From Nageia nagi (Eukaryota; Plantae; Pinophyta): a stretch of 64,000 nucleotides of DNA. Shown piece after piece: positions 1-46,500 of the stretch. Both the position numbers and the translations under genes were made by a program. Below the pieces are notes generated by a model. That model did no database searches. It saw only the letters and a program-made list of their open reading frames with translations, and was not told the origin of the DNA. The DNA lies in the NCBI GenBank assembly GCA_050084985.1, contig JBITNC010000001.1:79236001-79300000 (forward strand), read 5' to 3'. How positions within the stretch are numbered: position 1 is the first letter of the stretch; the number at the start of each line of letters is the position of its first letter.

Positions 1-5
1 GCTTG

Positions 6-712
6 GCGCATGCTCCAGGAAGACAAAATTTTGTCTTTCTAGAACATGCGCTTGGGAAGACGCCTAATTTGGAGTTCAAGTTCGAAAGAGCAAACTGGGT
101 CATTCCTGGACCCAACGCATGCTCCAGAAAGACAATTTTTTTGTCTTTTTGGGGCATGTGCCAGGAAGACACCCAGGACGAAGCAAAGGCCCGAAAAAGA
201 CAACTTAGTGCATTTCAAGGCTAGCACATGCCTCGAAAAGACAATCTTGTCTTTTGGGAGCATGCGCCAAGCCCAGGATGGCATCCAGTTGGGCTGAAAC
301 ATGAAATTTTGCTAAGGCATGGAGTCTCAAAGCTCATATCTCGCTCCAGCATGGCCAGAGGGGCTTGCCCATGCCTCAGAAAGACAAATTCTTGACTTTT
401 GGAAGCATGTGCCAAGCCTAGGAAGACACCGGGACGGGGTGAACTTGAAAATATGGCTAAGTCCCGGGAGGAGAAGACCAAAACGAAGCAAATCTGGCCA
501 CCTGCAACCCAACGCATGCCTCAGGAAGACAAAATTCTGACTTTCTGAACCATGCACCCAGACTAGAAGAGCCGAAGGGTTTGGAGCGCTTTTCAAAAAG
601 ACAAAATCTTGGCTTTTGAAATCATGTGCCAGGCTTGGAGGAGCCTCTAATGCATCCTCAGGTTGAGCGCATGATCTAGGAAGACAAAATCTTGTCTTTT
701 CTGGGCATGCGC
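6..712. repeat. Array of 7 imperfect ~45-bp palindromes (GCGCATG-n-AAGACAAAATTTTGTCTT-n-CATGCGC) with ~28-99-bp spacers
   Basis: Units at about 6-51, 116-161, 224-268, 367-412, 512-557, 586-630 and 667-712; the core AGACAAAATTTTGTCT of unit 1 is a perfect palindrome. Confidence 0.9.
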
Positions 713-926
713 CAACCCTAGAAGAGCCCTAGACCCCCACATCTAGTCTTCGACGGTCAAGCATGGAAGTTTGAGCGCAAACACATCTCGAGGTCGATCA
801 TGTGGACAGCCAAGATCAATTCCTCTCATGCCTAGCCAACTAGGGTTTCTTGGAAACCAAAATTTGCCTATAAACACCAACCTGGGGAGCTCATTTTCTC
901 AAACTTAGATTATCCTGCTCCTCATC

Positions 927-1361
927 TTGTGCACCACAATGGTCGAACTAAACCCTGAGGCACCAAGGCAAGAAGGCAAGACAGGGAAAGGTATGACCAC
1001 TGGTAATGCCTCGCCAAGACAGAAGCACAACGTTGACATCACAACCTTAATAAGATCACTGCACAAGGATCCCAGCCTAAGAGCTAGAGACGAATCTACA
1101 AACACTCACTATGTGAGTAGATTTGTGTTCAAAGTGAACAATACACTTTCTGTCACCAAAGTTTCCTTGAACAAGGAACTAGAGGAGCCGCAAGACTTGG
1201 AGGCCTGTACCTTAAAGATTGAAATTGATGAAGTAAACACTACTGGGGCAAAGCGGATTAGAGATATTACCAAACTGGCGAAGGAGCTGGAAGAGAGGCA
1301 GGGGAAGCTAAGCCTAGAAGGAGAGACCACACCTTCCCATCCAGATTTTCTTCAAGACTAG
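927..1361 (+). CDS. Short accessory ORF (~140 aa) of the LTR unit, function unknown
   Basis: Homologous to ORF 35460..35918 (LHKDPSLRARDESTNTHYVSRFVFKVNNTL vs LHEDPNQKVKDDSTETHHVRRFFFKVNSTL; both share RDITKLAKELEE). Preceded by TAGGGTTT and CCTATAAA at about 841-873. Confidence 0.65.
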   Translation: MCTTMVELNPEAPRQEGKTGKGMTTGNASPRQKHNVDITTLIRSLHKDPSLRARDESTNTHYVSRFVFKVNNTLSVTKVSLNKELEEPQDLEACTLKIEIDEVNTTGAKRIRDITKLAKELEERQGKLSLEGETTPSHPDFLQD

Positions 1362-22500: not shown

Positions 22501-25500
22501 ACAGATTTTGCAGGATTCTAAGGTGGGGAAATGGGCAAAACTCATCGGATCTGAATTTTGTCACCCTAAAACTTCTATGTTTCACTAGCAGCCGTATTTC
22601 CACCTAGTACTCATGAGTTTTGCCTCGGATTACTCGCTGGAAAACGTTAGAAACTTGCAACAACCAGATTATGGCCCTGGAATACTCGACACCCTTTCAA
22701 TCCGCAATTTCTTGCGAGAATCTGACGATTACCGGCAGATTTTTGAACCAAGGTCTAAACAGCCCTTAACAGTGTGTCAACAGCAATCAACAAAACAGTC
22801 CCTTGGAAGCCAACAATAATCCAAGCAAAGTCCCTTTCTTCCTCATCATGAACAGCAATCCCTTCCTCATCACACGCAGCCCATAACAAGTGAAAAACAG
22901 CCTTCAAATTATCACTAGGGAATGCTATGATGGTTCCTTCACCAACAATAGTCAATACACCCTCAAATGCAGCCCCAAAACTGATAAAAGGTGCAGTCCT
23001 CATTGTGTAAACAGCAGCTATTGATTTGTTATCAGCAAAAGGTATTATGGTTGCTTTCATGACTCCCTTAGCAACCTCCCAAACAAGCACTACAGTCCCT
23101 ATGAAGGCAGCGTCTCTTCCTCTAGTGATTGCAATACTCATTCTCACTCCAAGGAGTATTCCCCATGCTCTCAACATGTCAATACCAATGCCAATGTCAC
23201 TTGCCATCCCCCATGCATTTCCCATTGTGCAACTGTTGTTCCAACTAAAAACAAAATCCGAAATCATCACATACCCTTCCCAAGCTAGGTAACCACCCTC
23301 CAAGCTTGGAAACTTGTGGGTCAGATTTGCAACACTTTTCCATGGGCCTCTCAAACTCATGCGCTCTCTCCAAATGTTGAAAAGCGGATCAACATCCCTC
23401 TTCAAGATATCCAAGGCTAGTGCATCCTCTTCCATGGCTGATACAGCTTTCTTCAAATCCCTCCAAACTTCACGTCCTCCTTCCGAAGTGGCAAATGATC
23501 GTGCAAGACTGCTCCATGGATCCCTAAAGGCCAAGCGCTCCATCCTTAAGGCCAAAAATGGTTTTCCCATCCATACGGCCCCCATCATAGTGTGACGTTT
23601 CTTTTGCCTAGGCATCCATCCTCAAACACTTTTTCCAATCAACTAGATGAAGCTTGGGAAAAATAATCCTTGATCCCTTACAAGGTATATTCATGTCCAT
23701 CCACCTTAATCCTCATCATCAACTTTTGATAGTTGGAGTGAGTATCCCCTAAGTTATAACAACCATTGCACTCCTAATATCAAATGAGGGATGCCATCCC
23801 ATGGATAGACATAGAAGTCCTCCCTTGTCACACAACGTGAATTTCCCATTCATATTGGTGACTCAGAATCCTTCAAACCCCTCGATCTTGAGTCCCTTCT
23901 TGCTCACAAACACCTCATCAATGAAATTATGTGTTGCCCTTGGATCTATCAACACCATGACTTCCTGATTTGCAACTTGCCCTTTGACTTTGAGTGTGAA
24001 GTATTTGGACACCCCACAAATGGACGCTATCATCCCTCTTATGGCGTCCTTCGTGCTAGGAGAAGTAGGATGCTCAATGGTAGGTTGTTCATGATCCAGT
24101 TGATCTAGATCTTGCTCTAAATCTGAGTCTTCATCTTCCAAAATGGCCTCATTATGGTGGATCTTACCTTTTCCCATGCACCGGTGCCCACATTCCCAAG
24201 TCTTCTTGCATGTGAAACACAAATTTTTCTACATCAACTCCCTCCTAGTGGTTGCATCCATCTTCACATTAAACACTGGGGGTGGATTTTTCCCCTTCCC
24301 AATCGTGCTCCCTTCCCCAAAGTGTTAGGTCTAGGAGGAATAGTAGGTCACGATCTAATCATGGATGGCTCCAAAGCTAAAGTGCTCTTGATGGTGTCTA
24401 GCAACAGCTTGGGTAAGAAGGCCTTCACCATGCCTCTTAAAGGCTCAAGCAAACCCTCCATGAAGAGGAACGTCAACCTCTTCTTCGAGATGTTAGGGAC
24501 CATCATCGCAATCTACTGAAACTCTACAATATAATCTCCCATTGATCCCTTTTACTTCATTGCTATCAGATCTCGAAAAGTCATCCTCATCCGTATCATC
24601 AAAGCGATCCATATCTATGTGACAATGCGTCTCGTCCTCCTGGATCTCACTCACGAATGGAAGTGGATCTCTGAGTGTGTGGCATCCTTGGATTGCCTTC
24701 CAAACCATCACGCCCAATCGCTTCAACTTGTGGGTCTTTTGGACCTTGACACTCCCTTCCTTGTTGCAATTTTGTCACTAGATTGGTCAAGAGATTGACC
24801 AAATTGTCGAATTTTTCTTCGGGGGTAGTTGGAATAGGTGCATCAATCCTTTCTCTACTCCTCTCATGCCTTCCTTGCGAGCCATGCGCATCTTCTCCTC
24901 CTTGCGCCACTACCTCATCATCCATCCAGTCATACCTCAAGCGCTCTCCTTGAAGATTTGTCCTTCCTCACCAGATCTCCTCTATGGTGCCGTGGGCGTT
25001 CTTTTTTAGCGATCCCTCATAATATTGATGGATAGGTGGACGCATCAACCAAGAAGGTAGGATCTTCAGCTTTGATACCACTGTGATGTTCTAAAATTAT
25101 TCCAATTCCAAAAATAGCAACGCAAACCCGACTTTTGTAATTAATTAAATAACAAGATCAAATCTGAAATAATGTAAGAAACTCAACACCACAAGTCAAA
25201 ATATGAGATCCAGGTGCCACGCAACAATATATATCAATGATTAACCAAATACAATGCTCAATGGCCCAGAGGGCTAGATATCTGGCTCAAAGGACCAAAC
25301 AACAACAAAAAATATGCACTAAGATTAACATCACACATCTAGGGCCTCAAACCCTCGGATCTAATGGAACAATAAGACATACACTCCCTCGAGCCTAAAC
25401 GCTCCACCAAAGGGCTCTTACCACACTTGGAAACTACGAAGGTATATGTGCAACCTTCGAATGCCACTAGATGGACTAAGATGCTACACCTTACTCATAG

Positions 25501-28500
25501 ATTAACACAATCCCTCAACCTACTAACCCTCCACCCTTGATGCTACACCAAGAGGACAAGCTTGACGTTGTGCCAAGACTCCAAGATCAAAAATCAAATA
25601 AGCCAAAAATGCCTTCCAATCAATCATATCATCACTGAACACACATACCTAACTCAAGGAGGGAGACATCCCAATTTGGGGCTCACAATTGGTCCTTTGG
25701 ACCCACAAGTATCCTACCTTGAGATTACATTATGCCTAAGGATACATGCAAATAATAATTAAATACTCCTAACTATCAAATCACTTCTAAATTATATTAT
25801 CTCAAATGGGCCCCGCATGGCATCCAATGTAAGAAAAAGAAAAAATGATAAATTGGAAACATTACAATGTGGGGTAGAGAGGCTTGAACAAGGTCACAAG
25901 AGTAATATCAATGTTCACACCCGTAGAGTTTAAGTCATGCATAATTGCTCTAATCTCTAAAATCAACGCCATGGAATGATTGTCTTTCAACTCTACATTT
26001 AAGGGCTTCAATTGTAATTAGATTAATTCCAATTCAAAATGAGATTCATACAAATCTTTCAACTTTCTCAATGCATTCCAGGCGTCATCAATTGAGTTAG
26101 TGTGGCAATGAACCTCTTCACTCACCGAAGCAGCAATCAAAGCATATGCTTTCATATTTTTGTATTTCCAAAGTGCAAGCTCCTTTGCATTTGTCAGTTT
26201 GGTGGGGGGAGTATCTCCATCACAAATACACTCCCAAAAATCATTGAAAATGAGAGTATGTTTGATCTTTCTAAACCACTTTGGATAGTTTTCTTTCCCA
26301 ATCAATACCACAACAACAATACTCACACGGGAATGCATATTTGCAAATCTTCAAAACTCAAATGTTTCTTTACAAGATTTTATTATCAACACTTCTTTAC
26401 CTAATAAAAATGTCTTTACAAACATCATGAAAAATCAAATTGTTCTCAATTTGTAGTCTTCAAAATTTTGGATCAAACAAAAAAAATTTGTCCAAATTGA
26501 ACCTATATAATGCAATTTATCGCCAAAAATGTCTTTGGAATTTCAAAATTTTAAAAAAAGGCTCAAATTCTTCAAATTCTAAGCATGTCAAATTTTTAAA
26601 TTCATTTGAAGTGGGTTGATTGATTAAAAGAGCAATTGAAAGAGGTGGCTGGTGTGGGTCAAGTGCAATCCACATCAAGGTTGAAGTAAGGTGTCTATGG
26701 GCTCTTCGCATCCACATCAGGCAACATAGGCTATATTTGTAATACACCCCTCTGCAATAATTCAAGAGGGATGTATTTGGAAAACAACTAACAAACGAGT
26801 TTTATTTCATTCATGGAGTTAACAGTTCTAACATGTAAATCCTCTGGTCACTATTCAAGATCCTCGAAAACAATTTCAAGAATAATAGGATCCTCTAAAC
26901 TTTTGAAGGATGCTCCTGATCTGTGATCCATTCAAAAGGTGAATCAATGGCATCAAGATCAATGGCCTCATAATCTATATCTACAATTTTTTTATGGTAG
27001 AGTAGTAGATTGTAATGCACAAACACAAAAGTCATTTAATTTTCTTGTGTCAATTTGTTTTTCTTGGAATAAAATGTGATAAAAATACTCCAATTATACT
27101 CACAACCAGAAGCGTTGCATGGCTGAGATAAAATAAGGATTGCAAAGTTATGCAAGATGGGGTATATGACCCAAAATTCTCCCTCTATAAATATGGAAAA
27201 ATTCAATAAAAAGAGAATTAATACATCACTAGTTCACATGTAAAAATTGAAATTGAAATTAAAAGAAAAAAACTTTAAAGTTTTAATGAAGTTGTACCAT
27301 AGCTCCTAGTAATTGCTCAATGTCCAGCTTATGAAAGATATAGGATGTTTCTCTTGATTATTATATTTTTATGTAAATCATCTTTCTGTGTAAGCACGAT
27401 AGTTATGCTCTCTTCAACACCATGGACATACAATATGAAATCTTTTGCATATAATCCAAGTTGACCAATAATAGAGCTTGATCAATTGACTCTTTGATCT
27501 TCTCAAAAGCTTCTTTCCATTTTGTTGTCCAGACGAATGGTACACCTTTTTTGAGAAGCTTGGTCATTGATTTTTCAATATGAGAAAAATTAGAGATAAA
27601 CTTCCTCACAATATTGATCTTCCCGAAGATTGAAGTGTTTTCTTATTTGAAGGAAGGTGTAATGCTAATATAGCTTTTACTTTGTTTGAATCAACAAAAT
27701 AGCCAACCTTTAAGATGACCTAATAATTTCCCTTCAAGAAAACAAACATTGATTTTTCAAAACAAAGGTAATTCTAGCCTCCTAACATCTATGAAATACC
27801 AAACTTGGATGATTTAGATGCTAATTTTTATCATGAGAAGAAATTGTCATATCATCTTGGTATATGATAATGATTTTATTTACCGATTCCCTAAAGGTGA
27901 AGTCCTCTTTGAAATGTAACTTCAATGATTTGACAATCCAAACAACATCCTTTGGTATGCAAATGTTCTCCACTTGGTGGTAAATGTTGTCTTATGTTGA
28001 ATTCATCTTTCACCTAGACTTGGTTGTATCTAAAGAAACCATCTAGCAATGAGAATCTTTTAGCTCCAGAAACCATTTGTAAGATCAAATGAGATATTAG
28101 TCTTTCAAAGTAGCTATGTTCAAATTATGAAAGTTTAAACATAACTAGATTTCTCGTTTCTTCAACTGGACCAAAACTGAATTGGCCACCCATGTCAAAT
28201 GTTTTTTTTTATTTATGAGAGGTGTCAGCCGAAGCCACTAATCCTCTCGGAGTCGTGATCCTACCCACTAATCACGCGACTCAAGGTAAATTGTGCGATC
28301 TTTGCCTAGGTGGGACTTTTTACATGAGGGTTTTTATCCGAGCCCCACAAACCGATCACAATACAACCGAAATGCGTCCAAACTGCAGCCACGTAGTACC
28401 ACCAGGGATTCATCAAGGGGATTCGAACTTGTGACCACCTCCCGCCAATTTGATTCACTTTGCCACCATAGTCATTCCAAGCAACAGAAAGCAAATTTGG

Positions 28501-31500
28501 CTAAGTACGGAACAAATCTTAACTCGATGCAAGTCCGAAAGAAGACAAACCTCTTGTTTCATTCCGGATGTGAGCTCGACCCAGGCATGCTTCCTTAGCA
28601 CAAGTGTGGCCTAAGACACCCCTCATGACTCACCTCAGACTTGTGTCAACTTCATAGGGGTTCTAGAAGATGATTTTGAGCAATAATGATGAAATTCAAC
28701 TAATAATGATGAAATTCAACTAAGTATAGAACATGTCTTCCTTAGGCGCATGTCTAGACAGAGACAACCTTCATGACTCTCGAAGGATGTGCGTCGAGCT
28801 CAAGAGCACATCTCAAGCACATACGCAAGGCAAGACACCAATGTTGTCCCCCCCTTGGACTTGCGTTGGGCATCTCTAGCCAGTATCTAGGCGTAGATGG
28901 ACATCAAGATATACCTCATGACCCTTGTGTTGGGGGCTTTTTCATTCCTACCCCTACAAGTTGACAAGTGGTATTGCAAGGCTTAGTGGAAAGACTCCAA
29001 AACCTGAGGGGTAGGGCGTTACCCCTACTCGCTATGAGGACTATTTACCTCAAAGGTTAGAAAGTGAAGGGTGCATGGGCTCACTCAGGTGGTTTGGTGG
29101 AGATGTTTTAAGCTATTACCAACTCAAAATAGATTTGTTACTCAAGGACTCGAAAGGTGTCTCTAATCCAGTGAGGTTGTTTCTCAAAGAAAATAGAAAA
29201 TTAAAGGAGTTCATTGCGAAAGCCGCGCAAAAAATAGAAAAATAAAGAAAATGTTTGTGAAGAGACGATGATATGTGAATGGGGCTCTAGGGCAATGTTC
29301 TCACCGACTAGTGTGAATTTCAGAGACTGGACTCGCACAGGTTTGATCTAGGTTCCCTGCATTCCCGATCCGGCTTGTGAGGCAACAATACGAATACCTC
29401 AACAAGGGAAGTTTGAAGTTGAAGTGGTGGAAAGGAGAGATAGGATGGGGTAAGACTCAAACATGGAATGAAGTTCCTAGGTTAAACGACATATGCGAGT
29501 TCTCTCATAAGGCACTAATCCAATGTGCAAACTATAGAATATTAAACCAGATACACCACTTAAAAGTGTTTCAAAATATCTACAAGCATTCTTTTGTCCA
29601 CCTTATAGAAGATTTACAAAATGATCCAAACACTTAAGATAGCATGGGGAAATAACATACAATAACATCCATAGTCTCAAATAAGAACATGCTCATTTCA
29701 ATTACTTGAGATTTATATCATAATTGCGAAAAAGGGAAACTTGCAAGATTGGAAAAATAGTGTAAGTAGCCCAATTTTCCACAAAATGTCTAATCCCTTT
29801 CAAATGAGCTCAAATAAGCTATATATAGTTTTGGAGCAACCCTAAGTGTTTCCCTAACCATAATTGCAATTTACAAGAAAATAAAACATGGTCCAATACA
29901 AATATGCCACATGGCATTACAAGATGTCTTCCAAGTTTGTGGGAGCAAATCCTCATCCATCACAAACTTGGGAATTTATTAACAAATAAATAAAAATCTC
30001 TAAAAATAATTATGAAATCTATTTAATAAAAGACAACAAAAATTGTGACTAGGCGGTTGGTGGGCCCAACGCCTCTACGCGCCCTTCAAAGTCATCGTCC
30101 AAGAACTTGGCTGTGAGCTCCGATCCATGTACCATCTCCAATAGCTTTGGCTGGTTCATGACCATGTAGCGATCCACCTTATCCACAATCCTCATCATAT
30201 CTCTCTCCCATGCATGAGCTTTGAGTAAATGCTCCAAGTGACTACCAGTCTGAAAGGTATTAATATCTTCAATCATAATCAGACTATAAAAGAAGTGCAT
30301 CACTTCTGCCACCACCAGGTCTTTGTCTCGGATACCTATGTCATCATCGAGGAACTTCACCTGGAACTCCATTTGCTCAAGACAAGTGTTTGCCTTGTCA
30401 TTGAGCTTCCAAACATCCTTCTGCACCTCTTGGAACCGAGTGGTTATTTGAATAACAAGGCCTAGATGAAACCAATATTCTTCATAGAATTTCACATCCT
30501 CTGGTTTCCAATTCCGTGTTGTCTCGAACTGCATGATCATGGTTCGTCTAGAATCCAAGATCATGAGGAAGCCGGTTCTCTCCACAATGATATCCTTGAG
30601 CTTTTGCTCTTCTAGTGCTACCCTCTCTAGTGTTCCAATGAACTGCTGAACTGCTACCAAGACCTCATCTATGTGCTTTTGTTTCACTGCAATCATACCC
30701 TCCTTGAGCGGCTTGATCTTCCGAAGCTCTTCTGTGGGTACCTTAGCTGTTTCCAACTCTCTTGTCAGCTTCTTTTGTGTGGCTAACTCCTTCCTAAGGC
30801 TCTTAATCTCCTTGTCTTTCATCATACCATCTTTGGTGATGGCCTCAGCGTTGGAGACGATTGCATGCTTCTGACCAACCAAACCAATTGGCCCTATGTT
30901 AATGATCTGGTTAATCTGTCTGAGATCTTCTGGACGTTGTGGATTCTCCTTATCAGCTATAATGGTCTTGATGTGTATGGCATTATTGGCCAAGTGTACA
31001 TACGTTTGGGATTTTCCTAGACGAGTGGAGGAGCTTTCTCCTACTTGGTCATTCTTTTCCCCTACTCCAAATTCCTCCTCAACGTCCAAATTGAACACAT
31101 CGAGACAATCCTCCATGTTAACACCCCACTCATCCGTGGGTGGTGGTTGATAAGTTTCCACAACAGCCTCCTGAATAGTAGCAACATTCTTCTTCATTCT
31201 CTTCGAGGGTCTCTCCTCTCCTTGATCAGTCTCATCATTTTCCCCTGAGGTGACTATAGCTCGTGATTGTGGGGTTCTCTTGAGTCTAATCCTATTCTGC
31301 ACGATCTCAGATACTAGCTCCCTACCTTTTCCTGCAGATGGCTCTGACAATGTTGTCTTATGGACTTGTGCCAATATCTCTACGGATTCATCTTGTTCTT
31401 GTGCGTCTAGAATCTCCTCATTCTGGGCTACATTCTGCTCTTGCTCATCTTCTGACACTCCAATCTCCCCCTCCTCCTGGTTTTCATCCAGCCTGTAAGA

Positions 31501-34500
31501 GGGACTGGAAGCTGACGATCCAGATGGTGGAACAACAGGTGATGACACTAATGTGTTGGTTCTAGGTGGTCTAGGTGGTGGCGTAGGATCTTGACGTCTA
31601 TTTCTCACACACCTTACTACCTTATCAGTATCCACGCGCTCTAGCTCCCTTACATCATGTTCGTCAATGGTGGCTTGTATTTGTTGCATAACTTGCTCAA
31701 CTGGGTTCTTGCCACGCATAGACACATACTGCCTGACAGGTATCTCATTGACTGGAGGGAACTGCGTGATCCTAGAAGTGGACTCTTGAGGTTTCCTTCC
31801 CTTGTTCTATGAGAGTCTCTTGCTAATTGTGGCTTCCACACGGTGCTGCTCATTGATCGCGTCCCTGAGCACCCTTTCTCTTATTCTCTTGATCTCTACC
31901 TCATTGCTAATGTTCCGGAAAGGCTCCTCATTTGCAAGTGGCTTATGTTCATAGGACTTCTTCCTTTCCTTTGTGAAGAACAAGTGTATCCTATGATCCA
32001 GATCATAGTGGTCGACAGCAGGCATCATCCTGAATTTAAATTTGGCCAACTCTTGGTCCATGGTTTCCACATCCGACCAAAATTTACACTGATATTCTCC
32101 CATAGCAATAGGCAGATTTGAAGTAGCTGATTTCTTCTGCCACACCTGTTCATGCAGGAAGGGCAACTGCCTCATCATCTCCATTAACAGAATTCTGTTA
32201 CTTACAAACCTTGGCAATTGATAGGGCTGAACGGTTGATCCATGTATGCGAATATAGGAGAAGTGTTGGTGATGGAGGAAGAAGTCGCAATGCTCTTCAA
32301 AGCATCTTGAGCAGAATTGGAGATTCATGCAACTATGATTTCTCCCTTAAGCTCCTTGAATATCTCATACTCCCATCCATCATTTTTCATCATAAAACTT
32401 TCCCACCTTTTGTTTAACTTCCATTTGGGGTAGCATTTCCAAATGGAGTAAGTCCCTTTCTCAATCAAAGTCGTCTCACCCTTCGTTGTAGCCCTATATT
32501 TGCCATGAAGCAACATGTACATCAGGTATGAGTTGAGGTAAAATTTGCAAGTTGTACCAATGGATGACAATTGATCGGTTATCAAGTCACTCAACACCTT
32601 GCTCCATCTGATTCTCCTTCCTCTAGCAATCTCAAGAATGAACCCAAAGAACTCCTTCCTGAACTTCGAAGCATCTTCTTTCCCGAGCTCTAGATAGTAT
32701 AAGAACCATCACCTCGACTGCTGGGTAAAAGTTGGCGCGAGGAGCATTGATGAGCGCATTCCCCTTCAAACCATGATTTTCATCGTACATCCAACTCTTA
32801 ATAGCAACGCCTGCCCTGGGGGTCTCTTGGTAACAAGCTAATGACCTAACCTCGTTATACTCAACTTCTCCTTTAGAGGTCCACTGGAATGCTACATTGA
32901 TGGCTTCAAGGCGAAAGTCCATAATGATATCCCCCTTAACGTCTCGAAGGATTCTCTCCCCCTTCTGCCAGTGGTGGCTAACCTCCATGCACAATTCCGA
33001 AAATGGAGCCATGAATGGGACTAATGTACAAGTGGAGAGTCCAAAGAAGAAGACGATGTCCTGCTTCAAGTTAGTGATTGGAAGACAATGAGTGTTCTCC
33101 CTCATTTGTGTAGGGTCAACATTTTGCCAATTCATATCTCCGATAGTGGCAAAAACCATTCCTCGAGAATCTAGCACCTTAACAAAGGGCTTGTTGTCTC
33201 TCACGAATAGAGATGATGCAATCCTGTTTCAGCTACTCGAGGTCCCTAGCAAAGTCAGGAGCTGAATTGCCTTTGGAGGAAGTCATGGTGTTTTCAACCG
33301 CAACGAGGCTCTCCAAGAATGTTGCGTGAGTTTCCAAGTGAAAATGACCCTCGTGTTAAAGTGGCTAGCTTCCCAAATGCTTGCACAAGCCCTAGAGTGT
33401 ACAAGTGATGATGTTTGAGCATGAAAATCTGTAATTTGCTGCTATCTTGGCACAAGGGTAGAAGAGGAGCAATTTTTGAATTTGAGAAAATGAGGTCCCC
33501 AAGCCTGTATTTATAACCCATATGGCTTCCATATTGCCCTAGTTGACTAGGGTTTCTATTAAACCTCATCATGAACCTCCATCTGGCCGACCTAAAGATG
33601 TGTGCCGACCCAAAAACTCATGCAAAGCCTCTTATGCCCACACATTGGGGTCCAAAAGGCCATCGTAGCTTGGTGCATGAAAAAAAAAAGACAAAAAAGT
33701 GACTTTTTAAACCATGCACCAGCCCTAGGAGTGAATGTGCTTCCAACGTTGGGTCTCCTACCTATGCACTCGCTTGCTTTGATCACCCAACTCACCCATT
33801 AACCTGATTTTTCCTGATTTTAGATCTTCTGGTCGGCTGGACTTAGTGATTTTGATGCTGCGTTCGAAATTGGGCAACCTATTGGCTTGGTGCATGTTTC
33901 CAAAAGTCAAGATAGTGACCTTTTGAGGCATGCGCCAGCATTGCCTACCCGTTCAGCTTGGTCGCGGCCTATTTTCCGAAATTTGATCTTTGAATGCTCA
34001 TGCCTTAGCCAAATTTTCATGTTCTTCAGATTTTGGAGTCTTCCTGGGCTTAGCACATGCCTCAAAAAGTCAAGAATTTGTCTTTTGAGATCATGTGCTA
34101 GCCCCCCAGGTATGCTTGAGTTGGTCTTGAGTTTCTCAAGTCTATGACTTGTCAAATTTTCATTTTGGGTCGAGCCTCCTGGATGACTTAGGCTCAAATT
34201 CCGAACTTCAAACATGCTTGATTTGTCCTCCTGGCCAAATCGCATGGTTCAAAAAGACAAGATTTTGTCTTTTCAAAGTATGCACCACCCTCCTAGTGTC
34301 TTTGCCTTAGAATTTTTACGCCTTCATCTGGTCCAGTATGCTTCCTGTATCTGGCACATGCTCAGGAAAGTCAAAATTGTCTCCTGGAGGCATGCGCTAG
34401 GCTTGTAAGTGCCCAAACTTCATCTTCAAACCTTCCTTCTTGCCTGGACGACCCCTTGGCCAAGTCACATGGTTCAAAAAGATAAGATTTTGTCTTTCTA

Positions 34501-37500
34501 AAGCATGCGCCAACCCTTTGGAATGCCCAATTTGACTTGATCAGCTTCCAGCTCGACTTAGACTAACTAATTCACCTAAATTCGACTTTTACCCTTTTCA
34601 AACTTAGCCATTTTAAGGATTTTTCAATTTCTATTTTATCATGACTAACTCTAATGAAGGGAGAGGCTATGAACTATGAGGAGTAATCCATGAATCTGGG
34701 TCTCGACGATCCAACTTGGGTAGGCCGAGATGACGATAAAATGAAGTATATACAATAGTGTGTTTGAGGGTCCCCAAAATCGTAGGATTTTGGGGCATGT
34801 TGTATTTTAATCACAACACCTTGGAGGACTTGCACCAAGCCAGTATGTACATTTCTAACACAAGTGCACACCAAGACAGAGATGGCAACCTTTCTCAGAT
34901 GTGCGCCATCCTTCCAAGAGAGTCAAGGGAATATCCCGAGCAACTAAGGACGAAATTGGCTAAGTGTAGAGCATCCTCCCTTCGGACGCAAGTCAATAAG
35001 AAGAAAACCACCATGACCACCTGCACATCTGTGCTAGATTCACATACCTCATTACTAACACAAATGCAATAGGAGACAACATGCTTGTCTACCCCCATAC
35101 ATGTGTTGGCTCTGTCTCTCCTCATCTACGCACAAATTCGGACCAAGAAACCCCTTTTGACTCCCAGAACACTTGCGTCAACCTCCCAAGTGCCAACCAA
35201 CCTCAAGTTGCATGCCAAAATGTTTAGAAAACCGCACACATCCTTAGGCACTTGAAGGTGTTGCCCTAGAAAAAACCCAGAGATATCTACAAAAGGGGGC
35301 AAACCAATCTTCTTTTCTGCACGCCAAAATTGCTCTCTCCTCATGAACTCACCTGGGCCTTGAAGCTGAGACCCCTTGAAACCCTTCTAAAACAAGTCAA
35401 GGAGCTTCTCCCCCCCATTCCTTGAGACACTTGAGACACCACTCCACATCCAATGTCCAATGGTAGAGATGAGTTCTAAGACACAGGGCGAAGAGATCAA
35501 GTTGAAGGGGGCATTGACCATTGACGAGGTCCCACCAAAGATAAAGCTCACCTTTGATCTCGCAGCTTCAATGAGGATACTACATGAGGATCCCAACCAG
35601 AAGGTGAAAGACGATTCCACGGAGACTCACCATGTGCGCAGGTTTTTCTTCAAGGTTAATAGCACATTGTTGACGACTAGAGTCTTCCTGAACAAGGCCC
35701 CAAAGAAATCTCAAGACATAAAGACTCAGACATTGAAGACTGGAATCGGTGAGGTCAAGGCCACTGGGGCAAAGCAGAATAGAGACATCACCAAGCTAGC
35801 CAAGGAACTAGAGGAGAGCCAGAGGAGGACAGGGTCTGAAGAGGAGATCATACTCCATAAGCCACGTCGTCCCATGGATGGAGAAGGAACAACTAATGGA
35901 CTCATGAATGCAAGTTGATGGAAATCGTTGCATCCTGCATGCAACATTTTTTATTTTATTTTTACATAATTCAGTATTTCGAACCTCAAATTTTATAAAT
36001 TTTGTTAAAGCCTAGTGACGGATAAGGATTTGCTCCCACGAGTGCTGGACTTAGTCTAGTGGTGCCACGTGGCTCATTTTTTATTGGACCATCGGTATTT
36101 TAATAATTTTATATTAGTTAGGGTTAGGGCAACACTTAGGGTTGCCTTGCAAAACAATAAATAGCCCTCATTTGTTAGGAAGGAAATTTTCAAAATGGAA
36201 CTTTGAACATTTTGCAACTAGATGAGTAGAGTAATTATTTCTATCGTATACTTGTCTTTTGTGAATGTGATATGATCTTTGAAATGAAAATCACAAAACT
36301 CCATTTCTTTGGTATTATGAACTTGGACATGTGATGTTAGTCATTGATATGTGTTGCTTGAGATACTTGGGACATTTCACAAACTCCTCAAGGAGTGGGT
36401 AAAGGGGTAGTTGAATATCCTTTTAAAGTATTGAATGTGATGCATGATCGATGATTGTTCATAGTATGCAACTAGACTCGTATAACTCTAAAAGTGTACT
36501 CCTTTATGATGTTTAGCGCGTGAATTCACCCACATATTGAAAGTGCAATCCTTGTCCCCTAGACACATGCTCCCTTTTGCAGTTCATTCGTGTTGGTGGC
36601 TACCGCAAGTGGATGTGTCCTTCTTCTAGACCCTTCGTGTAGTCTAGATGGAATGAAAGGACTTGTGGGTGTGTGAAACTCAAAAGAAACTTTGAAGAAC
36701 TTGGCCTTTTAGACATTGTATTCGTCGATGGAGCCTGATGCAAAAAGCAAAACTCATGTGCCTCTAGCCATCTTGTATTCCTTCATAATTACATTCTAAA
36801 ATTGGGGTAATTCTATTATTTTTTCATTCTCTATTCTTTATTCTTTAATCCTCGAGAGTTGTATACATAAGAATGCCTGGGAGGGATATTATTCTCTTAG
36901 AGTCTCAATGAGTTGTAAAATTTTGTATTCTTTCATTTTTATGAATCCCTCTTCTTCTCATTTAGTCTCAGGACTCATGTATATAATACTACCCAGGAGT
37001 CATATTGTTTTCTTAGTACCCGAGAATTATATGAATAAGGATACCCGAGAGTTACATCGAATAGGAGCTATGTCATTTTTTATTCTTTTATTCTTTAGGA
37101 CCCAGAAGTCGAGAGTACCCGGGAGTTATGTCATTTTCTTCAGAGTACCCAGGAAGAATTGTCAAAAATACCCAAGTCATGTATACAAGACTATCCGAGA
37201 GTTATATTTATTGCCTTAAGACCTCCGAGAATTGTTGACACAAGTGTTCGAGACTTGCACAAATTCAGAGCCAGATTTTTAAAGAACATCAACAAAGCCC
37301 GACGATTTTGAGACATGACATCACATTTTTTGGTGAAAATCAATGGGTCCCGACGGAATCAAAACATCAACAGAGCCCGACGATTTTGAGTGATGTCACA
37401 TTTTTTTGATGAAAATCAGCGGGTCCTGGAGGAGCCAGAATATCAATAGTGCCCACCGATTCTGAGAGATGACGTCATGATTTTCAGCTAAAATCAACAG

Positions 37501-40500
37501 GTCCCAAAAGAACCAAATCATCGACAAAGCCCAGAAGAAGAACATAGAGCCTGCCAAGCAAGTGTAAGAGTAATGCATGAAAAAGAACACCTGAGGTCCA
37601 CTTCATCTTAAGTGTTTGACCCTCGGGGCCCTTTTAATGTGTCGACATTGACTCATTTCCACATAATAGTGGTAGTTCTTCTTGAGTTAAGCGAACATAA
37701 TGGCTATTAACCAGCATTACTCTGATTACTGACATCCACGGTAGAGATCATAAAGATTGCAAAGAAGCAGATAGTAGCTAACAGACATAATACCAAATCG
37801 TACCAATCAAAGTGCAATCAAATAACTACTCAATCAGCTACAATGCTACCTTTAATCAGCTACAATGCTATATTCAATCAGCTACAGGGCCGAAGAAAGA
37901 GCAATCAACATGTTAGAAGGATTGCAGCTCTATGGACATGGCTGACCAGAAATTGCAAATTCCCAGATAGTTATGTTGATTAATAGTTATTCTCTGTGTA
38001 ATTTATCATAGTTGTAGCATTTATGTAAATAGTGTTGTTTTAGATGTTTCATTCAATGCTAGCAGTAATGTATATTAATCAAACCCAACCACCCACGAAG
38101 GGGGAAGTTGTATAAATAGCTAGCTTTTAGAAATCAAAAAGGTCGGACATTTTAACAAATTTGCCCAAATCTGTAAGAGCTATTCAGATATGATACTAAA
38201 AACAGACAATGCTTTGCCCTCTTGCAACAAAGTGGTTGTTATTGCTTTTGTGAATGCTGTGTGAAATGTTTTCTTCAAATTGTGGCTGTGTATTGTGATT
38301 GCGAAACCCCAGGTGCCAGATAGTTTACTATTCTTAATCTTGGTTATGGATTGATGCATGTGCTGCAATGCCCAAGTTGTAAATTTCTTATTTTAATTGT
38401 TTATTTACTTATCTCTTTCTTGTAACTCTTCATCTTTTTATTCCTTTCCTGTTACTTTTGACCTTAAATATAGATAAGAACCGGTCTATAAATCGAAGAT
38501 TGAGTAGAAAACCAACATGAGTGCATCCCTACCACTTTCTGCTCTTTCAAGGAACCTACCGTTGCGGGCAGTGGAGAACACGACCAGACCAAACCCTTGA
38601 GGTTACACTATATCGATCAACAGTACCCAATTCCATTTTTGGCACACTCGATGGGACCTAAGCTAAATTCTATATTTAGCTGGCGTTGTTAGACCTGATA
38701 GCCTCATCTGGTGGGCTATCAATTGCATCCTTCAAAATTATAAGGTTGTTGTAACCTTATTGGCGACTATGTTGTCAACCAGTCAACGTTTTGAACCCTG
38801 GCACCTCTAGAACATAGACTAACTAGAAGTAGTGCCAGAAATTCCCTTAGACAGCCTAGATTTCAAGAGCTGTCAGTTCCTCACAAGAGGACTAGACGAA
38901 AGATTTCTCTGGTTGTCTCCTTTGGTCCCTTCAAGGGCAACGACTTTGTCAGTTGTATTTGACTCATCCCCTGAAAATCCTTCGTCTCCTGTACATTCTC
39001 CAAGTATGGCTCAACCAGCAAAGTTTCCTGCCTGGAATAATAGTCATCCTTTGGTTGTAGCTGCTAATTCACCTCCTATACCTCAAGTAGCTTTTAAAGT
39101 TTTGCCTAAGTCTGATGGCTCTGAAAAGACACCATATGAACATTGTCAAAATGTATCTATGTTGGCCTCAAGCTACTGTCAAGATGAAACTATGATGACA
39201 AGGCTACTGTCACACTCTTTTGAAGGCAAAGCAGCCGAGTGGTTCAGAACTCTTACCATTCAATCTATAAATTCATGGGGAGAGTTGTGTCAGGCTTTAA
39301 TTAAAAGATTTTCTGTAGATGGCAATGATAGCACGTTCCTTAGCCTCATAGCATGTATAAAAAGACATTCTCGTGAATTTATTGATGATTTTAATATCAA
39401 ATTTGAAAGAACATGGAAGTCCATACCAACAAGGATCAGACCAACGAATCCACAAGCTCTGGTGTACTACAGGAAAGCTTTTCTCCCTGACCTCAATATG
39501 CTTTTTGTTATGTCAGGAGATTCATTCCAAGATGCTTACCAGACAGCAAAGACTGCAGAACATACCCTGGTGTCGTCTGGTAAAATGCAGCCCAAAACAA
39601 TCATGCCTATATTTCCAAATTTACCTCCCAAGCAAGCTCCATAAATAGGTCATCCTAGAGTTTTGGCCTTACCACCTCCTCCCAAAGCTTTCTCTGGTAT
39701 TGAACTTAAATCTCAAGAAGAAAGAATAAGGCAGTTGGAGGTAACTATTAGAAATCTAACTAATAAGCTCACTTTGCAAGAGAGGCAGAATCATGGTTTT
39801 AATTATAGAAGATACGATAATCAGTATCAGCCAAGATTCCAAAGGAAGGTCAACCAACCAGAACAGCCAAATCCTCCTAAAACAATTGAGAATGTTGTTA
39901 TGACCAGTTCTATAGATAATGCTGCTTCGGACATTGCGGAATGGTGTCCGTCATGTTCAGTTCATTTTCCAAATTCATGTGCAGTGTAGCAACATCAGTA
40001 TTTGGGGTTACACTCTGACCAGATGGTAGAACCTGCTTCAGATCCTGCTGTTGATCTCACAATGGTCAACTTTGGGTTCCCGAATATGCTGGAGAACAAG
40101 CAAATTGTGTTCAAACTATAGCAACTTCTTCAGCAACTTCACAGCAACCTCAAGCCACTCAGCAGTATCGAGCTTCTATTCAAGCCCAACCTGAACCTAA
40201 GAAAGCTAAGGCTCCCTTAGCTTAGCCTCAGAACCAACATCATCAAGTCCCATTTAATCCGCGTACTATTCCGACAAATTCGAATACTAATGCCCAGGGT
40301 GAAACAAACCCCGCTACAACGAGAAAAGAAGTCCCAGAGAAAGAAAGACCCTGTACGTTAAGATATCCTTTCATCACTGATTCGCATAAAGAAAAGGCTA
40401 TTCAACATTTCAGAACACATCAGCAAGCGGAACCAAGTAAGTCCATCCCATATGCTCCCTACAATATTGTAGAAGAATTAAAAAAACTCCTAGAATGACT

Positions 40501-43500
40501 ATGTTTGATGCATTAAAGATACCTAATCAATTAGATCTTCTGCAAGAAGCTTTGAAGTTAAGAAACAGTAAAAAGAGGACAAATGAAGAGAATCCTATCT
40601 ATGCTGTGTCTGAAGTTGTCCCTCCAGCTCCAATAGGTATAACGAAACCCTCACCTTTCTATTTATCCCTGAGACTAGAAGGTTGGGTAGTGAACAATTG
40701 TATGATAGATACCGGAGCTACAATAACTGTTATCCCTAAAGCTATTGTAGACGAAATGAAGTTGTACATTACAAGATGCATGAACGGTGTCATACAATTA
40801 GATTCTTCCTCAGTAAATGTGGTTGGTAGTGTTAAAGGTGTTCAAATAACCCTCTGATATTTGTGTTGTTTAAGACATTATTGTAGTTGATCTTCCATCT
40901 CTATTTGAAATGTCTTTTCAAAGAATTTACTGCTAAATTGAGAGGGTACCTAGCCTTAGACTATAGTCATCTTATGCTTCCTTTCCAAAACAAACAGGTG
41001 AAGATTTTGAATGAAGGCACTACAACTATCCATCTCAAGAGGATCAATGAAATAAACTACATGAATGATCCACAATCAGTGGAGATATTTGAAAGTGACA
41101 CACTAAGGGAATCACTACTGACAACTGAAGTTCTTTCAACGAATGATCTGAATTATCAGGTCACAGATGCTAGCATGGGCAATTATTGTTTATATGAGAA
41201 AGTTCAGCCAATTTCAGTCACTGCTGATAAAGAACATGAGGTATGGATGATGTATTTTGATGGTTTCGGATGTAGACATGGATGTGAAGCTGGAGTGGTT
41301 TTCAAATCTTCCAAGGGGACCACCAAAAGATTCTCCTTTCGATTCACATGGACCTGTACAAACAATGTTGCTAAATATGAAGCCCTTTGCTTAGGGTAAT
41401 CTAAAGCAATCAGTATAGGCATCAGATGCCTAATTGTCCATGGTGATTCTGAATTGGTCATCAAGCAAGTTAAAAATCAGATCAGTGCAAAACATCATTA
41501 CCTGAAGAACTAAAGGAATAGTGTAGGATTTATTGGAGTCCTTTCTGGCTATCAATTTTATATCTGTTCTTAGAAGGCACAACCAAATAGCTAATGCACT
41601 TGCTGGAAGAGGGGCACGTTATAACCCTGCTCATAAAAGAGGAGCTCTTGGAGTCAAAGTTTAGTGTAGGCCTTCAGTACCCAATCCTGCAAACTTCTGG
41701 CAAGTATTTGACTCTGATGAGCATATTGTGAACTTCCTCGTAGATGAAGCAATGGCTCACACTTTTGGTACTCAAGAAATGTCTAATTGTTTCCAAGAAT
41801 CAGATGTCATTCAACTCAGAAACAATGTAATACCTAAAGGACTGCTCTCTTTTGAAAGACTGTTTGATTCAAAAGATGTCCTAAAGGCTAAGTCTTCGAT
41901 CATCCTAAAGAAGAACTATTTTTGAGCTGGAAGTAGAACCTGAGAAGCTTATAAAAATTGGTTCAAAGTGTTTTGATGCAGAAAAAACTGTTGTCTCAGA
42001 TTTATTATGAGTTTTCCCAAGTAATTGCTTGGACTTATGATGATCTTAAGACATATGACAAAGATGTCATCCAACACACGATTGAACTTGAACCAGAGGT
42101 CAAACCATACAAGCAAAAACAAAAACCTGTCAACCCAAAGATAGAAAAAGCTATGAAACAGGAGTTAATCAAGCTCCTTGATTCAAAAATCATTTATCCT
42201 ATCAAGCATTCTTCTTAGGTTGCAAATCTAGTTCCTGTTAGAAAGAAAAGTGAAAAAATCAGACTCTGTGTTGATTTCAGAAATTTGAATAAAGTGTCCC
42301 TTAACGATAATTATCCTCTCCCGCCAATGGAGCAGATCTTGCATACAGTAGCCAGAGCTTGCTGTTTTTCAATGATTGATGGCTACTCAGGATTTAACCA
42401 GATTTGGGTGAAGGATGAATATCAGTTTAAAACAGCATTTACAATTAAATGGGGGACATTTGCTTTTCAAAGGTTGCCATTTGGTCTTTCTAATGCAGGA
42501 GCTACTTTTCAAAGAGCCATAGATCATGCATTTGGTGAGCTAATAAACAAGATTATATTGCTCTATTTAGATGATATCATTGTCTTCTCCAAAAGTAGAA
42601 GTGATCACCTGGAACATCTATGATCAGTCTTTGAAAAATGCATGAAATTTGGCATATCAATCAACCCAAAAAAATCAATTTTTATGATCAACCAAGGAAA
42701 GTTACTTGGCCACACTATCTCAAAAGAGGGATTAGCAATTGATCCAGACGGAGTAAAAACTATAGAAGCATTGCCACTCCCCTCTAACAAGAAGGCCTTA
42801 CAATCATTCCTTGGTCAGATCAATTTTGTTAGGAAATTTATTAATAATTTTTTAGAAATTGTATCTCCAATCACTTCGATGCTAAATAAAGATGCTATAT
42901 TTTCTTGATCATGTGAAGTAAAAGTAGCCTTCAAAGATAAAAAAGACTATAACAGAAGCTTTTGTGCTTAAAAATCCTGATATGTCAAAAAATTTCATCA
43001 TGTATGCACATGGGGCAAACAGGAGGATTGCTGCAATTCTTGCACAAAAGGATGACAATAATGAAGAACACCCGATTGCCTTTCATAGTCAAACACTGCA
43101 TTAACACCAGCAAAGGTACTCATTTATTGAAAAGCAAGTGTTTTCCATTATGAAGGGATTTAAAAAATTCAAACACTGTCTCCCATATTAGAATCCTTGT
43201 ATATACTATTCATCCAGATGTAAGAAATTATATAATACAAGGAGATCTAGGTGAAGGAAAAGCTGGTTGGATCACTAAAGTAATGGAATATGACAAAGAT
43301 TAAGCTAACCAAACTGATCAGAGGCAGGGCTCTCTGTGAAAATATGGTTGAAGCTTCACATATGATCGCTCTTGTGGAGGATGAGCAACAACTTAATCAT
43401 GAAAGTGATTGGATTAAGCAAATCATGGTTTATTTTGAATCTGGTAGGTGCCCTAAAGCTCTAGATAGTTTCCAAAGAAAGATATTCAGATTGCATGCCC

Positions 43501-46500
43501 TTAAATTTATCATGATAGATGACCATTTGTATAGAAAAAATTTTGATCAAACCCTTCTCAAATGTGTGACTCAAGATGAATCCCGTAGAATACTACATGA
43601 ATTTTATTACGGATTCTCTGGCAGGCATTACAGTGGACCAACTACAGCAGCAAAGGTATTACAAGCTGGATATAATTGGCCCGCTATGTTTCAGGATTCA
43701 TTCAAGATTGCCCGAGAGTGTGATAAGTGTAACAAATTTGTGGGAAAGAGAAGACAAGCTGCAATGCCTCTTAAACCTGTGGTAGTCGAAGAGCCCTTTC
43801 AGCAGTGGTGTATGGACTTCATTGGTGTCATAAACCCAAATTTCTTAGCAGGCCACAAGTTTATTTTGACTACAACAGATTACTTCACTAGATGGTCAGA
43901 GGCTATGCCATGCAAAAATACAAATCAAGAAGCAATGATAGAAATGATTAAAAGGATAATCACCCACTTTGGAATCCCACAGACTATAATGTCAGACAAT
44001 GGTCCGACATTTACTGAGGGCAATCTGTCAAGCTTTGTAGCTCAATATGGAATTTACTGGTTATACTCTTCAAACTATTACCCACAGGGTAACTGGTTAG
44101 CTAAATCAACTAACAAAAATCTGATCAGGATCATCAAAAGAACAATTGAAGGGAATCCTAGACAATGGCATACACAATTAAACTATGCATTATGGGCTGA
44201 TAGAATTAGTATAAAATCAGCAATAAAGAGATCCCTATATGCATTGGTATATGGTAAAAGATCAGTGTTGCCAGTACACATGGAGTTACCAGCTTTAAAA
44301 ATCCTGCAAGAAATAGAAGACCATGACTTTGAGCCACTACAGTGCAGACATAGTCAGCTCCTAAAACTGGAGGAAGATCGAAACAAAGCATATGAGTCAT
44401 TTCAACATTGTCAGCACATCGTCAAGAGGTGGTTTGATAAAAAAAAAAAAATCTTCCTGAGTGAAGTTTGAACCAGGTGATATTGTCCTCAAATGGGATG
44501 AGAAAAGAGCAAAGCCCGAAAGACACCAAAAATTTGACTCTCTTTGGAGCGGGCCTTACATCATCACCCAGGCTATGCAAAATAATGCATTCAAATTGCA
44601 AGATGTTACCGGGTCCCGGGAATTACCTATTCCCATCAACTGGATCTATTTAAAACATTACTGGGTAATGAGGTAAACTTGTACTGCCCACAAAGCATTG
44701 TATATTGTGAACAAAAAAAAAATTGCACAGTTTTCAAAAAAAAGTAAATAGCCATTAATGCTCAAATTTAATTCAGTATTATTAAGAGTTAATGTCAGCG
44801 TACTGCTTAGTTGTCAACTTTAGTGCAGTTTTGTCAAGAGTTAATGAGGGCGTGTTGCTCAGCTGTCATTGGATATATTTATTTAAGAAAAGATTTCCTT
44901 GGATTTTACGAACTGTCGCACAAGTAGAACAAATTAACTCTAGTGTGCTTTGAATTTACTAATCCAACCTATGCCAGTTCAATCCGTACAATGCGCGGGT
45001 CACAAGATCATCAAAAAGTAATTGCCATTAATGGAAATCTTGCCAACTTTGGACAAATAAAATCCCCCCCATACTTTATAGTTCAACACTTAGCCAATTT
45101 CAAGCACATAAGTTTCCAAAGCATTCAGAGCTTAAAGATTTCAGAGCTGAGTTGTGTTGAAAGAGAGAAAAGTTGCAGGACCTCGCATTGCTCAGATTGT
45201 TGTTTCTAAATGACAACCAAAGGTTCAAAAAAGGTTGTTAATATCATGGCGACCTTTCAGTCATCCTCTACAGCTAAAGTAGAACAACTCGACGCTGACC
45301 TCCTCTCTTTACAAGAAGAATATCTCGAGAATGCACCAGGAGTGAACTGGACTAAAATGGGAGTAATTAGTCATATGAATACATGGAGAGCTGACCCTTG
45401 CCACATTCTTTTGCAACTTAAGACACCTGAAGTGACTGGGAAAAGGAAGTCGCTCATTCAAAGAGAGATGTTATGATTGATCAAGGCTTGGCATACTATG
45501 TGCCCTATGAGTCCTTCATCTGCCCCAAGCTTTTGTATTCCCTGGCACACAAGCATCATCAAAAAGGGTACCAAATTGGAATGTTCAAGAGCACTAAAGA
45601 GGGAGATACTTCTAAGCCGATGTTTGAAGTAGTACTGGATTACTCCCCTAACTCCATCGTCCAAGCATTTGTTGTTCTGACGGACTGGACGTTCCATGTT
45701 AAAAAACAAATTGATTTGAAAAAGGAGAAATATGATTTTTATATCAATCAAGATGAAATGCTAAGCTGTATTAGTGCAAAATACCAAGACAGCAGAAATG
45801 TTAAACTCTTGTCGAGCTACCAGATAACTCTTTTTGAAAGAAAGAAGGATAGAGAAGTGCTGCAGGCACTCGTAGTCATCCTGGGAAAAAAGACCCAGAT
45901 TGAAGCAGACAAAGCCATGGTGCGTATGGCTTATAACATTTTAGAAGCCCATATCTGCTATGATTTCCCAGCTTTTATAACTGGAGAAATTAAGAGGTGT
46001 CTGTTCAAGATTGAAAAGTTAGATTTTAGACATTCCTCGTATCTTTGGTGGCTCTTTGTCCATCAAAATCTGGACAAACTCATAGAGGCAAGGCTCCCAA
46101 TTGAGCCGACCAATTCCAGTGCTACGCCGATGCCAATTGACCTGATGGTGCCAATTTTGACCAAGGTGCATGGATCCTACTATGAGTTCATGGATAAGTT
46201 CTATGCAACTGCAGTAAAAATTTTGATTGGAAAACTCCCCAATAGGCTACACAAAAGCACAATGAGGGAGCTATAAGGAGGAAATAAAATCAATGATTGG
46301 TACTTCTTGAAAAACCGCACCATAATAATCAGGTATGGGTATTTTGAGAGACCCTTCTTTTTGCCTAAATATGTTAACCCCCAATTGTATTCAATAAAGA
46401 TGGGTAAACAGATTTGTGCCATAGAGAGTAAATATGGGTCTGGGGGTAACTTTAAGTCTATTGTAAATATACCAGCTTCTACTAAGAATTTTACTCTTTT

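Follow-up and report, generated by a model that had tools for sequence, protein, structure and literature searches.

A stretch of 64,000 nucleotides from the conifer Nageia nagi (contig JBITNC010000001.1, positions 79,236,001 to 79,300,000; hereafter the window) contains a 5,891-bp unit on its minus strand (28928..34818) that is bounded like a long terminal repeat (LTR) and encloses a gene of about 1,080 codons. The locus raises the question of whether so large a gene can be part of an LTR, or whether the unit is the remnant of another kind of element. A first-pass annotation had read the whole unit as one giant solo LTR with an accessory gene in its U3 region. We consider it probable that the unit is a solo LTR of a gymnosperm TatII-type Ty3/gypsy family, in which U3 holds a now-broken accessory gene of ~1,080 codons behind its own predicted promoter.

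Termini, target site and internal order of the unit

The termini proposed earlier were confirmed, with TGTTG at 28928, CAACA ending at 34818, and a 5-bp target-site duplication (TSD), CCTTG, on each side (left copy 28923..28927, right copy 34819..34823). By itself the TSD means little, because 7 of the 4,460 TGTTG..CAACA pairs in the window show a 5-bp duplication, the pair 28928-32596 among them. The boundaries were settled by the end motif, by the LTR starts of relatives, and by empty-site contigs. The 3'-end motif at the 28928 end occurs three times in the window and in none of 100 shuffled sequences. The 34818 end comprises the 5' terminus, or start of U3 (34766..34818, minus strand), with a hairpin at 34772-34795; it is homologous to both LTR starts of locus L005 and to the unit start of locus L008 (79-83% over ~53 bp). 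Contigs assembled from public sequencing runs provided data on the empty site, coverage and loose ends. In two of three runs, contigs pass from 28927 into sequence like that from 34824 onward and contain CCTTG once; the match beyond 34824 comprised 14 of 15 and 25 of 30 letters, as judged by eye. Contigs stop at the 34818-side terminus with mixed flanks in all four runs, and contigs of all four cover the entire unit, with coverage stepping down at both ends; read depth was not taken as copy number. The unit at 28928..34818 is therefore real, and both of its ends are termini of the family.

As the first-pass annotation had stated, internal retrotransposon parts are absent from the unit. No tblastn match to gag or pol was obtained, the best PBS (primer binding site) candidate had 5 mismatches of 17, and the ~1.1 kb between the end of the open reading frame (ORF) and the tail contained no purine run of at least 11 that could represent a polypurine tract (PPT). 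The 5' terminus has no second copy inside the unit.

The order of parts is terminus, array, TATA box, ORF, and tail. The array (33670..34519, no strand assigned) consists of six dispersed imperfect palindromes of ~50 bp, three of which pair at no fewer than 15 of 22 positions (shuffle mean 0.065), in agreement with the palindromes noted before. It is shared with both LTRs of L005 and with the PBS-adjacent LTR of locus L012. The predicted ORF promoter (33508..33604, minus strand) comprises a conserved motif at 33604, a telo-box-like motif at 33555, and a TATA box at 33516, the last two also having been recognized in the earlier annotation; the motif and the TATA box are 87-99 bp apart in all four copies having the motif. 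The ORF (30049..33286) is followed past its stop codon by an AT-rich stretch (29965..30048, minus strand) with AATAAA at 29980-29975 and with neither a PPT nor a TGTTG terminus. The ~1.0-kb tail (28928..29964, minus strand) resembles a complete ordinary LTR promoter and includes a conserved motif at 29964, TTAGGG motifs at 29857 and 29845, and the 3'-end motif at 28952-28928. Its second TATA-like motif, previously placed at about 29820, was located at 29828; it is the predicted promoter of the genomic RNA, and the tail downstream of it presumably represents R-U5.

Relatives and the LTRs beside a primer binding site

A search with the 3'-end motif gave 15 matches in 14 metagenome loci (L001-L014). 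L003 and L014 represent one insertion and the two matches in L013 a fold-back, which left 13 termini, or 16 together with the three in the window. An identical 17-nt PBS follows two of the 16 termini, those of L005 and L012. The template for this PBS was taken from L005, and the remaining 14 termini differ from it at 9 or more positions.

L005 has two LTR copies, at 8467-4516 and from 1293 to the contig end, with 90.7% identity over 1,300 bp, and the PBS lies 5 nt past the first. Both begin with TGTTGTGAC, that is, with the TGTTGTG terminus of the candidate, and both include the palindrome array; the duplicated LTR begins ~1.6 kb upstream of the tail motif. Because these paired LTRs start at the terminus and contain the array, the LTR of the family is not the 1.1-kb tail alone. 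In the PBS-adjacent copy, the pre-TATA motif runs straight into the final 16 codons and the stop of the long ORF (E 1.1e-6 among 8,208 reading frames; L005 was not part of the profile). For an internal ORF, an end midway through an LTR, beyond the terminus and the array, is impossible, and loss of the promoter-ORF cassette from an LTR that once contained it is the simplest explanation. L012 shows the array, the end of a short ORF, the tail, the same 17-nt PBS as L005, the end of aRH, and RT in this order, and thus its PBS-adjacent LTR also holds the array (read by eye) and the end of an ORF.

The earlier claim of one giant LTR is thus supported for the array and the ORF slot, which lie inside the LTR in L005 and L012; of the long ORF itself, only the 16-codon remnant in L005 was seen there. 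The opposite arrangement, in which LTRs of ~1.1 kb flank an internal array and ORF, was not seen at any of the 16 distinct termini. The predicted PBS was found after the L005 and L012 LTRs; the predicted PPT was missing before the sole 3' LTR seen, that of L005.

The slot upstream of the tail varies in content. The long ORF lies in sense directly upstream of the ~1-kb tail at five of the 16 termini (the candidate, L003/L014, L007, L011, and L013). An unrelated ORF of ~150-220 codons, with the same promoter motifs, takes the same slot at four others (window 1-2618, L002, L006, and L008). The content was not readable at five (L001, L004, L009, L010, and window 48659). An antisense ORF (eORF-3'R) in L013 was rejected as a fold-back, 110 bp being duplicated at 100% identity. 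The L008 unit is 3.1 kb long with a TSD matching at 4 of 5 positions; at 5290-5440 of this locus, the TATA box and a downstream motif are tandemly duplicated ahead of the short ORF. In a tree of the last 330 bp, built from a short and diverged alignment, long-ORF and short-ORF units were sisters twice (support 0.999 and 0.991), with L003, L006, L008, L011, and window 1-2618 involved. This topology suggests an exchange of cassettes between LTR subfamilies.

The family was provisionally assigned through L012, in which the C-terminal end of aRH stands directly before RT, as in a TatII-type element of the window (E 2.5e-9; one locus, with the protease deleted). Its RT is 52% identical to that of the window TatII element versus 40% to that of a nested element with aRH after RH. 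The PBS shared by L005 and L012 may be of the tRNA-Asn type; Rfam gave no match and ARAGORN none in ten loci. Among the matches listed (17 of the 39 loose-end rows), no contig aligned to the 3' end of the candidate showed a PBS. In the passages of PMC6317226 drawn on here, the order aRH then RT defines TatI/TatII, TatII is reported from gymnosperms, its criteria include a PBS for tRNA-Asp or tRNA-Asn and a TSD of 4 or 5 bp, and the tRNA-Asn type accounts for 15% of tabulated TatII PBSs. The candidate's TSD of 5 bp is within this range. From the TatII element in the window alone, a conifer or a related plant would be the likely host.

Several other elements were identified in the window. The TatII-type element (38100-48318, plus strand) has the order gag-PR-aRH-RT-RH-INT, LTRs of ~520 bp (91.6% identity), and a decayed sense extra ORF (~45210-47790) between the integrase and the ~520-bp 3' LTR; a PPT-like purine tract precedes each of the LTRs, an uncommon position in the case of the 5' one. 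An isolated copy of the last ~340 bp of the family tail (48319-48659, plus strand) directly follows its 3' LTR. The second family unit (1-2618, plus strand) contains the array, a TATA box at ~868, the short unrelated ORF (~940-1361), the tail and the 3'-end motif, with no PBS after it; its 5' end is beyond the window. The candidate itself sits in opposite orientation within a short-ORF relative on the plus strand (~28480-28927 and 34819-36200; ORF 35391-35918, tail start 35986-36165), and family members nested in one another were also found in L008 and probably in L005. Other retroelements were a decayed Ty1/copia gag-pol (7377-9404, plus strand) and two decayed gypsy-like protease regions, similar to each other and in opposite orientations (22755-24228, minus strand; 56235-58330, plus strand).

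The long ORF and its predicted protein

The gene at 30049..33286 (minus strand) is decayed, with stops at 33235, 33181, 32327, and 31809 and frameshifts near 33150, 32688, and 32300, which were mapped by comparison with relatives. The frame from 33286 to 30049, annotated as one long ORF, is thus not open, and its longest open piece is 585 codons. With seven lesions in the gene, the notion of a self-contained expression cassette fails for the window copy. An indel near the last frameshift separates this copy from the contigs of all four runs, and the decay is therefore at least partly private to it.

For the long ORF, dN/dS was 0.14-0.21 in eight of ten pairs, the other two being saturated. In all three comparisons made on DNA-only alignments, differences were 0.53-0.64 at third versus 0.19-0.29 at second positions, third positions differing about twice as often as first or second ones. 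These values indicate that the long ORF evolved under purifying selection as a protein while the subfamilies diverged.

The encoded protein comprises a globular N-terminal region, a linker rich in proline and acidic residues, and a predicted C-terminal coiled-coil bundle; a KRxK(K) cluster was present in the linker of all three copies compared. A search of representative proteins returned 140 unnamed fragments as homologues, and longer protein relatives numbered zero among 7,012 candidates. A second homologue search gave one match among 94, which is the same sequence as part of L011 and so is not independent. Viral contigs did not match the candidate by protein or motif, and the genome contigs searched gave no match. 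Pfam contained no meaningful family for either the long or the short ORF type. PMD (PF10536) and Transposase_28 (PF04195) were not matched by the window pieces, the read-through relatives or a 488-aa homologue in HMMER searches, which leave room for remote homology. The fold model of the 488-aa homologue had a mean pLDDT of 58.8 and no match in PDB, BFVD or a wide search (best Z 4.2). Its N-terminal part was modelled poorly and without structural match, and ESM Atlas gave no usable match for P0133, in a search that did not include the family's own N-terminal region. The C-terminal 283 aa were modelled as an antiparallel helical bundle (pLDDT 85.5), for which the fold search returned generic matches only, the best to a designed coil (Z 12.5) and none at E <= 0.001. 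A conserved membrane segment, as expected of an env-like ORF, was absent from the three copies, in which the best 19-residue hydropathy values (1.79, 1.25, and 1.53) fell at differing places.

Profile comparison matched the N-terminal region of the long ORF to the internal 3' ORF of the window TatII element (83%, E 8.6e-6, 382 columns); direct tblastx and tblastn gave nothing significant between the two. Judged from this profile match, the long ORF is a distant relative of the sense internal 3' extra ORF of that element. In L005, an N-terminal piece of a more distant long-ORF paralogue was also observed (~8660-9424, plus strand; N-terminal pieces 32-37% identical). It lies antisense, ~190 bp outside the 5' LTR, and is interrupted by another LTR element; it may belong either to the sequence into which an insertion nested or to a genuine antisense arrangement.

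By analogy with proposals for the ORFs of other Tat elements (PMC7264820, PMC11963269, as far as their cited passages go), the protein is possibly, although rather doubtfully, a non-membrane, oligomerising coiled-coil protein and probably a nuclear helper, which would favour transcription of the family or counter its silencing and act in trans on ORF-deleted relatives.

Alternative readings, mechanism and known systems

Several points weigh against the solo-LTR reading. A complete long-ORF LTR followed by a PBS was found at none of the five long-ORF termini, a count that is uninformative given the overall 2/16, and an element with two ORF-bearing LTRs was not seen among the loci found. L005 is non-autonomous, and its 3' LTR ends with the contig ~130 bp short of the key junction. 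A T-rich tract instead of a purine PPT precedes this LTR (1293-1320); TTT stands before both L005 copies (1293-1320, 8467-8470), and plus-strand synthesis in the family may start from an atypical primer. The TatII link comes from a single locus, L012, with gag and protease deleted. The last 330 bp of the relatives are mostly 55-72% identical to those of the candidate (88% in L010), and the key evidence therefore comes from sister subfamilies, while dS of the long ORF is near saturation. Fold-back pieces occur in at least two contigs (L007 and L013), and junctions here can thus be artefacts. It is highly improbable that the junctions seen in L005 and L012 arose as chimeras during assembly or amplification, in which case they would not show where the ORF lies relative to a PBS and the unit could be another type of TG..CA element. 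The fold-back duplication of L013 at 100% identity and the inverted pieces in L007 would fit such an origin; the LTR copies of L005 differ by 9%, unlike an artefactual duplication, its remnant-tail-PBS stretch is collinear with other tails, and the identical PBS recurs in two different subfamilies.

A more substantial alternative, albeit an unlikely one, is that the ORF-bearing unit is LTR-derived but moves or is retained as a one-LTR, non-autonomous form, for example by reinsertion of LTR circles or by recombination between subfamilies, and that replicators with two LTRs carry ORF-deleted LTRs only. Neither PBS-adjacent LTR has a complete ORF, the PBS is missing from all five long-ORF termini as from 14 of the 16 overall, and the tail tree mixes long- with short-ORF types, all of which speaks for this alternative. 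The remnant in L005 means, however, that an LTR with the ORF was the ancestor of a PBS-adjacent one, and purifying selection across subfamilies needs repeated copying of a working gene, normally through PBS-primed RNA. The same locus largely refutes an internally deleted element, in which a short 5' LTR head, an internal eORF-3'F, and a 3' LTR tail would be joined and the true LTRs would measure about 1.1 kb: there, the duplicated LTR takes in the array, its start lying ~1.6 kb upstream of the tail motif. The relationship of the long ORF to an internal eORF-3'F and the likeness of the tail to a complete ordinary LTR promoter speak for such a deletion, as do the tandem arrays and the ORFs that Tat elements commonly carry downstream of pol, ahead of the 3' LTR, described in the passages used of PMC11963269. 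Between the ORF and the tail, neither a PPT nor a terminus was seen by eye at any of the five long-ORF termini, and the unit has no internal copy of the 5' terminus; we regard the deletion as very unlikely.

Under the solo-LTR reading, the following mechanism is proposed. In LTR retrotransposons, the U3 at the 3' end of the RNA is copied into both LTRs by reverse transcription. The second TATA box (29828) of the 5' LTR would start a genomic RNA in which the ~4.9-kb U3 occurs a single time, at the 3' end, the usual place of the TatII eORF-3'F. Reverse transcription would then copy U3, and hence the ORF, into both LTRs. The first TATA box, whether in one of the two LTRs or in a solo LTR, would drive a distinct mRNA for the ORF. 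LTR-LTR recombination would have left the TSD-flanked solo copy at the candidate site, which later decayed. As to the origin, plus-strand priming probably shifted upstream, annexing an internal block of array, promoter and eORF-3'F into U3, so that the ~1-kb tail would be the older, ordinary LTR; such a shift is suggested by the relationship of the long ORF to an internal 3' ORF, by the ordinary look of the tail, and by the lack of a canonical PPT. More tentatively, and with somewhat less than even confidence, we propose a gymnosperm TatII clade that uses U3 as an exchangeable gene slot. Through an upstream priming shift it would have annexed a ~1,080-codon gene with its promoter into a ~6-kb LTR, with two copies per element and one per solo LTR. 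Its subfamilies would swap cargo (the long ORF, the unrelated ORF of ~150-220 codons, or none), and relatives lacking the ORF would receive the protein in trans from young solo LTRs.

If a large gene under selection does lie inside an LTR, recombination between LTRs, by which elements are usually removed, would drop gag-pol yet keep the gene and its promoter. Solo copies keeping the gene would then be a natural test of the protein's benefit to the family, and length-capped LTR finders and gene annotators are predicted to mishandle such units in conifer giga-genomes. In Sireviruses, too, palindromic units form an array ahead of a U3 TATA box; these are Ty1/copia elements of angiosperms, and their env-like ORF is internal. 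The sag gene of mouse mammary tumor virus, a much smaller one of about 320 codons in a ~1.3-kb LTR, is likewise encoded by the LTR. As described in the parts of PMC11998498 used here, it is an accessory gene of a virus for which solo LTRs occur; compared by description, it differs in belonging to a vertebrate retrovirus and in specifying a type II membrane protein, whereas the candidate protein has no conserved membrane segment.

In four Pinaceae, one solo LTR per 3.7-7.5 full elements is given in the cited part of PMC5751070; the apparent excess of PBS-less ends in the family (14/16) would contrast with this ratio, in a sample that is small and biased. Ogre elements belong to the Tat lineage and have LTRs of 1.9-6.5 kb, and the length of the candidate LTR is thus no record; they differ in having internal extra ORFs, aRH between RH and INT, and angiosperm hosts (PMC6431247, portions cited). 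Gymnosperm TatII, with an aRNH position called "copia-like", corresponds to Tat E in the text used of PMC13468544. Accessory ORFs of plant retrotransposons are placed in the internal region, with their function left open, in the sections drawn on of PMC7264820 and PMC4408406, and no plant LTR with a large embedded ORF was found described in the literature searched, which left out most subscription papers. To the extent of these sources, Ogre-length LTRs, extra ORFs in Tat elements, and an LTR-encoded gene in mouse mammary tumor virus are already known.

The 3' ORFs of Retand, Grande, and RIRE2 and the PMD-coiled-coil extra ORFs resemble the candidate in being conserved ORFs with their own promoter and a nearby repeat array, in combining a globular domain with a C-terminal coiled coil, and in their proposed nuclear or regulatory role (PMC7264820, PMC11963269, PMC4408406, as excerpted). 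In contrast, these ORFs lie between pol and the 3' LTR, mostly in antisense, and the LTRs of Retand measure 315-1,194 bp according to the same excerpts. A further close system is gymnosperm TatII, with which the family appears to share the aRH end directly before RT (L012), a 5-bp TSD, and a tRNA-type PBS; the long ORF also has a relative in the sense 3' extra ORF of a TatII element. Among 27 TatII elements, eORF-5'F was reported in 23% and eORF-3'F in 26% (Neumann et al., 2019, PMC6317226), and these near-equal rates may reflect unrecognized ORFs in both LTRs. What sets the candidate apart from TatII as characterized in that excerpt is the placement of its ORF, together with a separate TATA box, within the LTR; if this arrangement is true of the family, each element carries the gene in both of its ends, not once in the middle.

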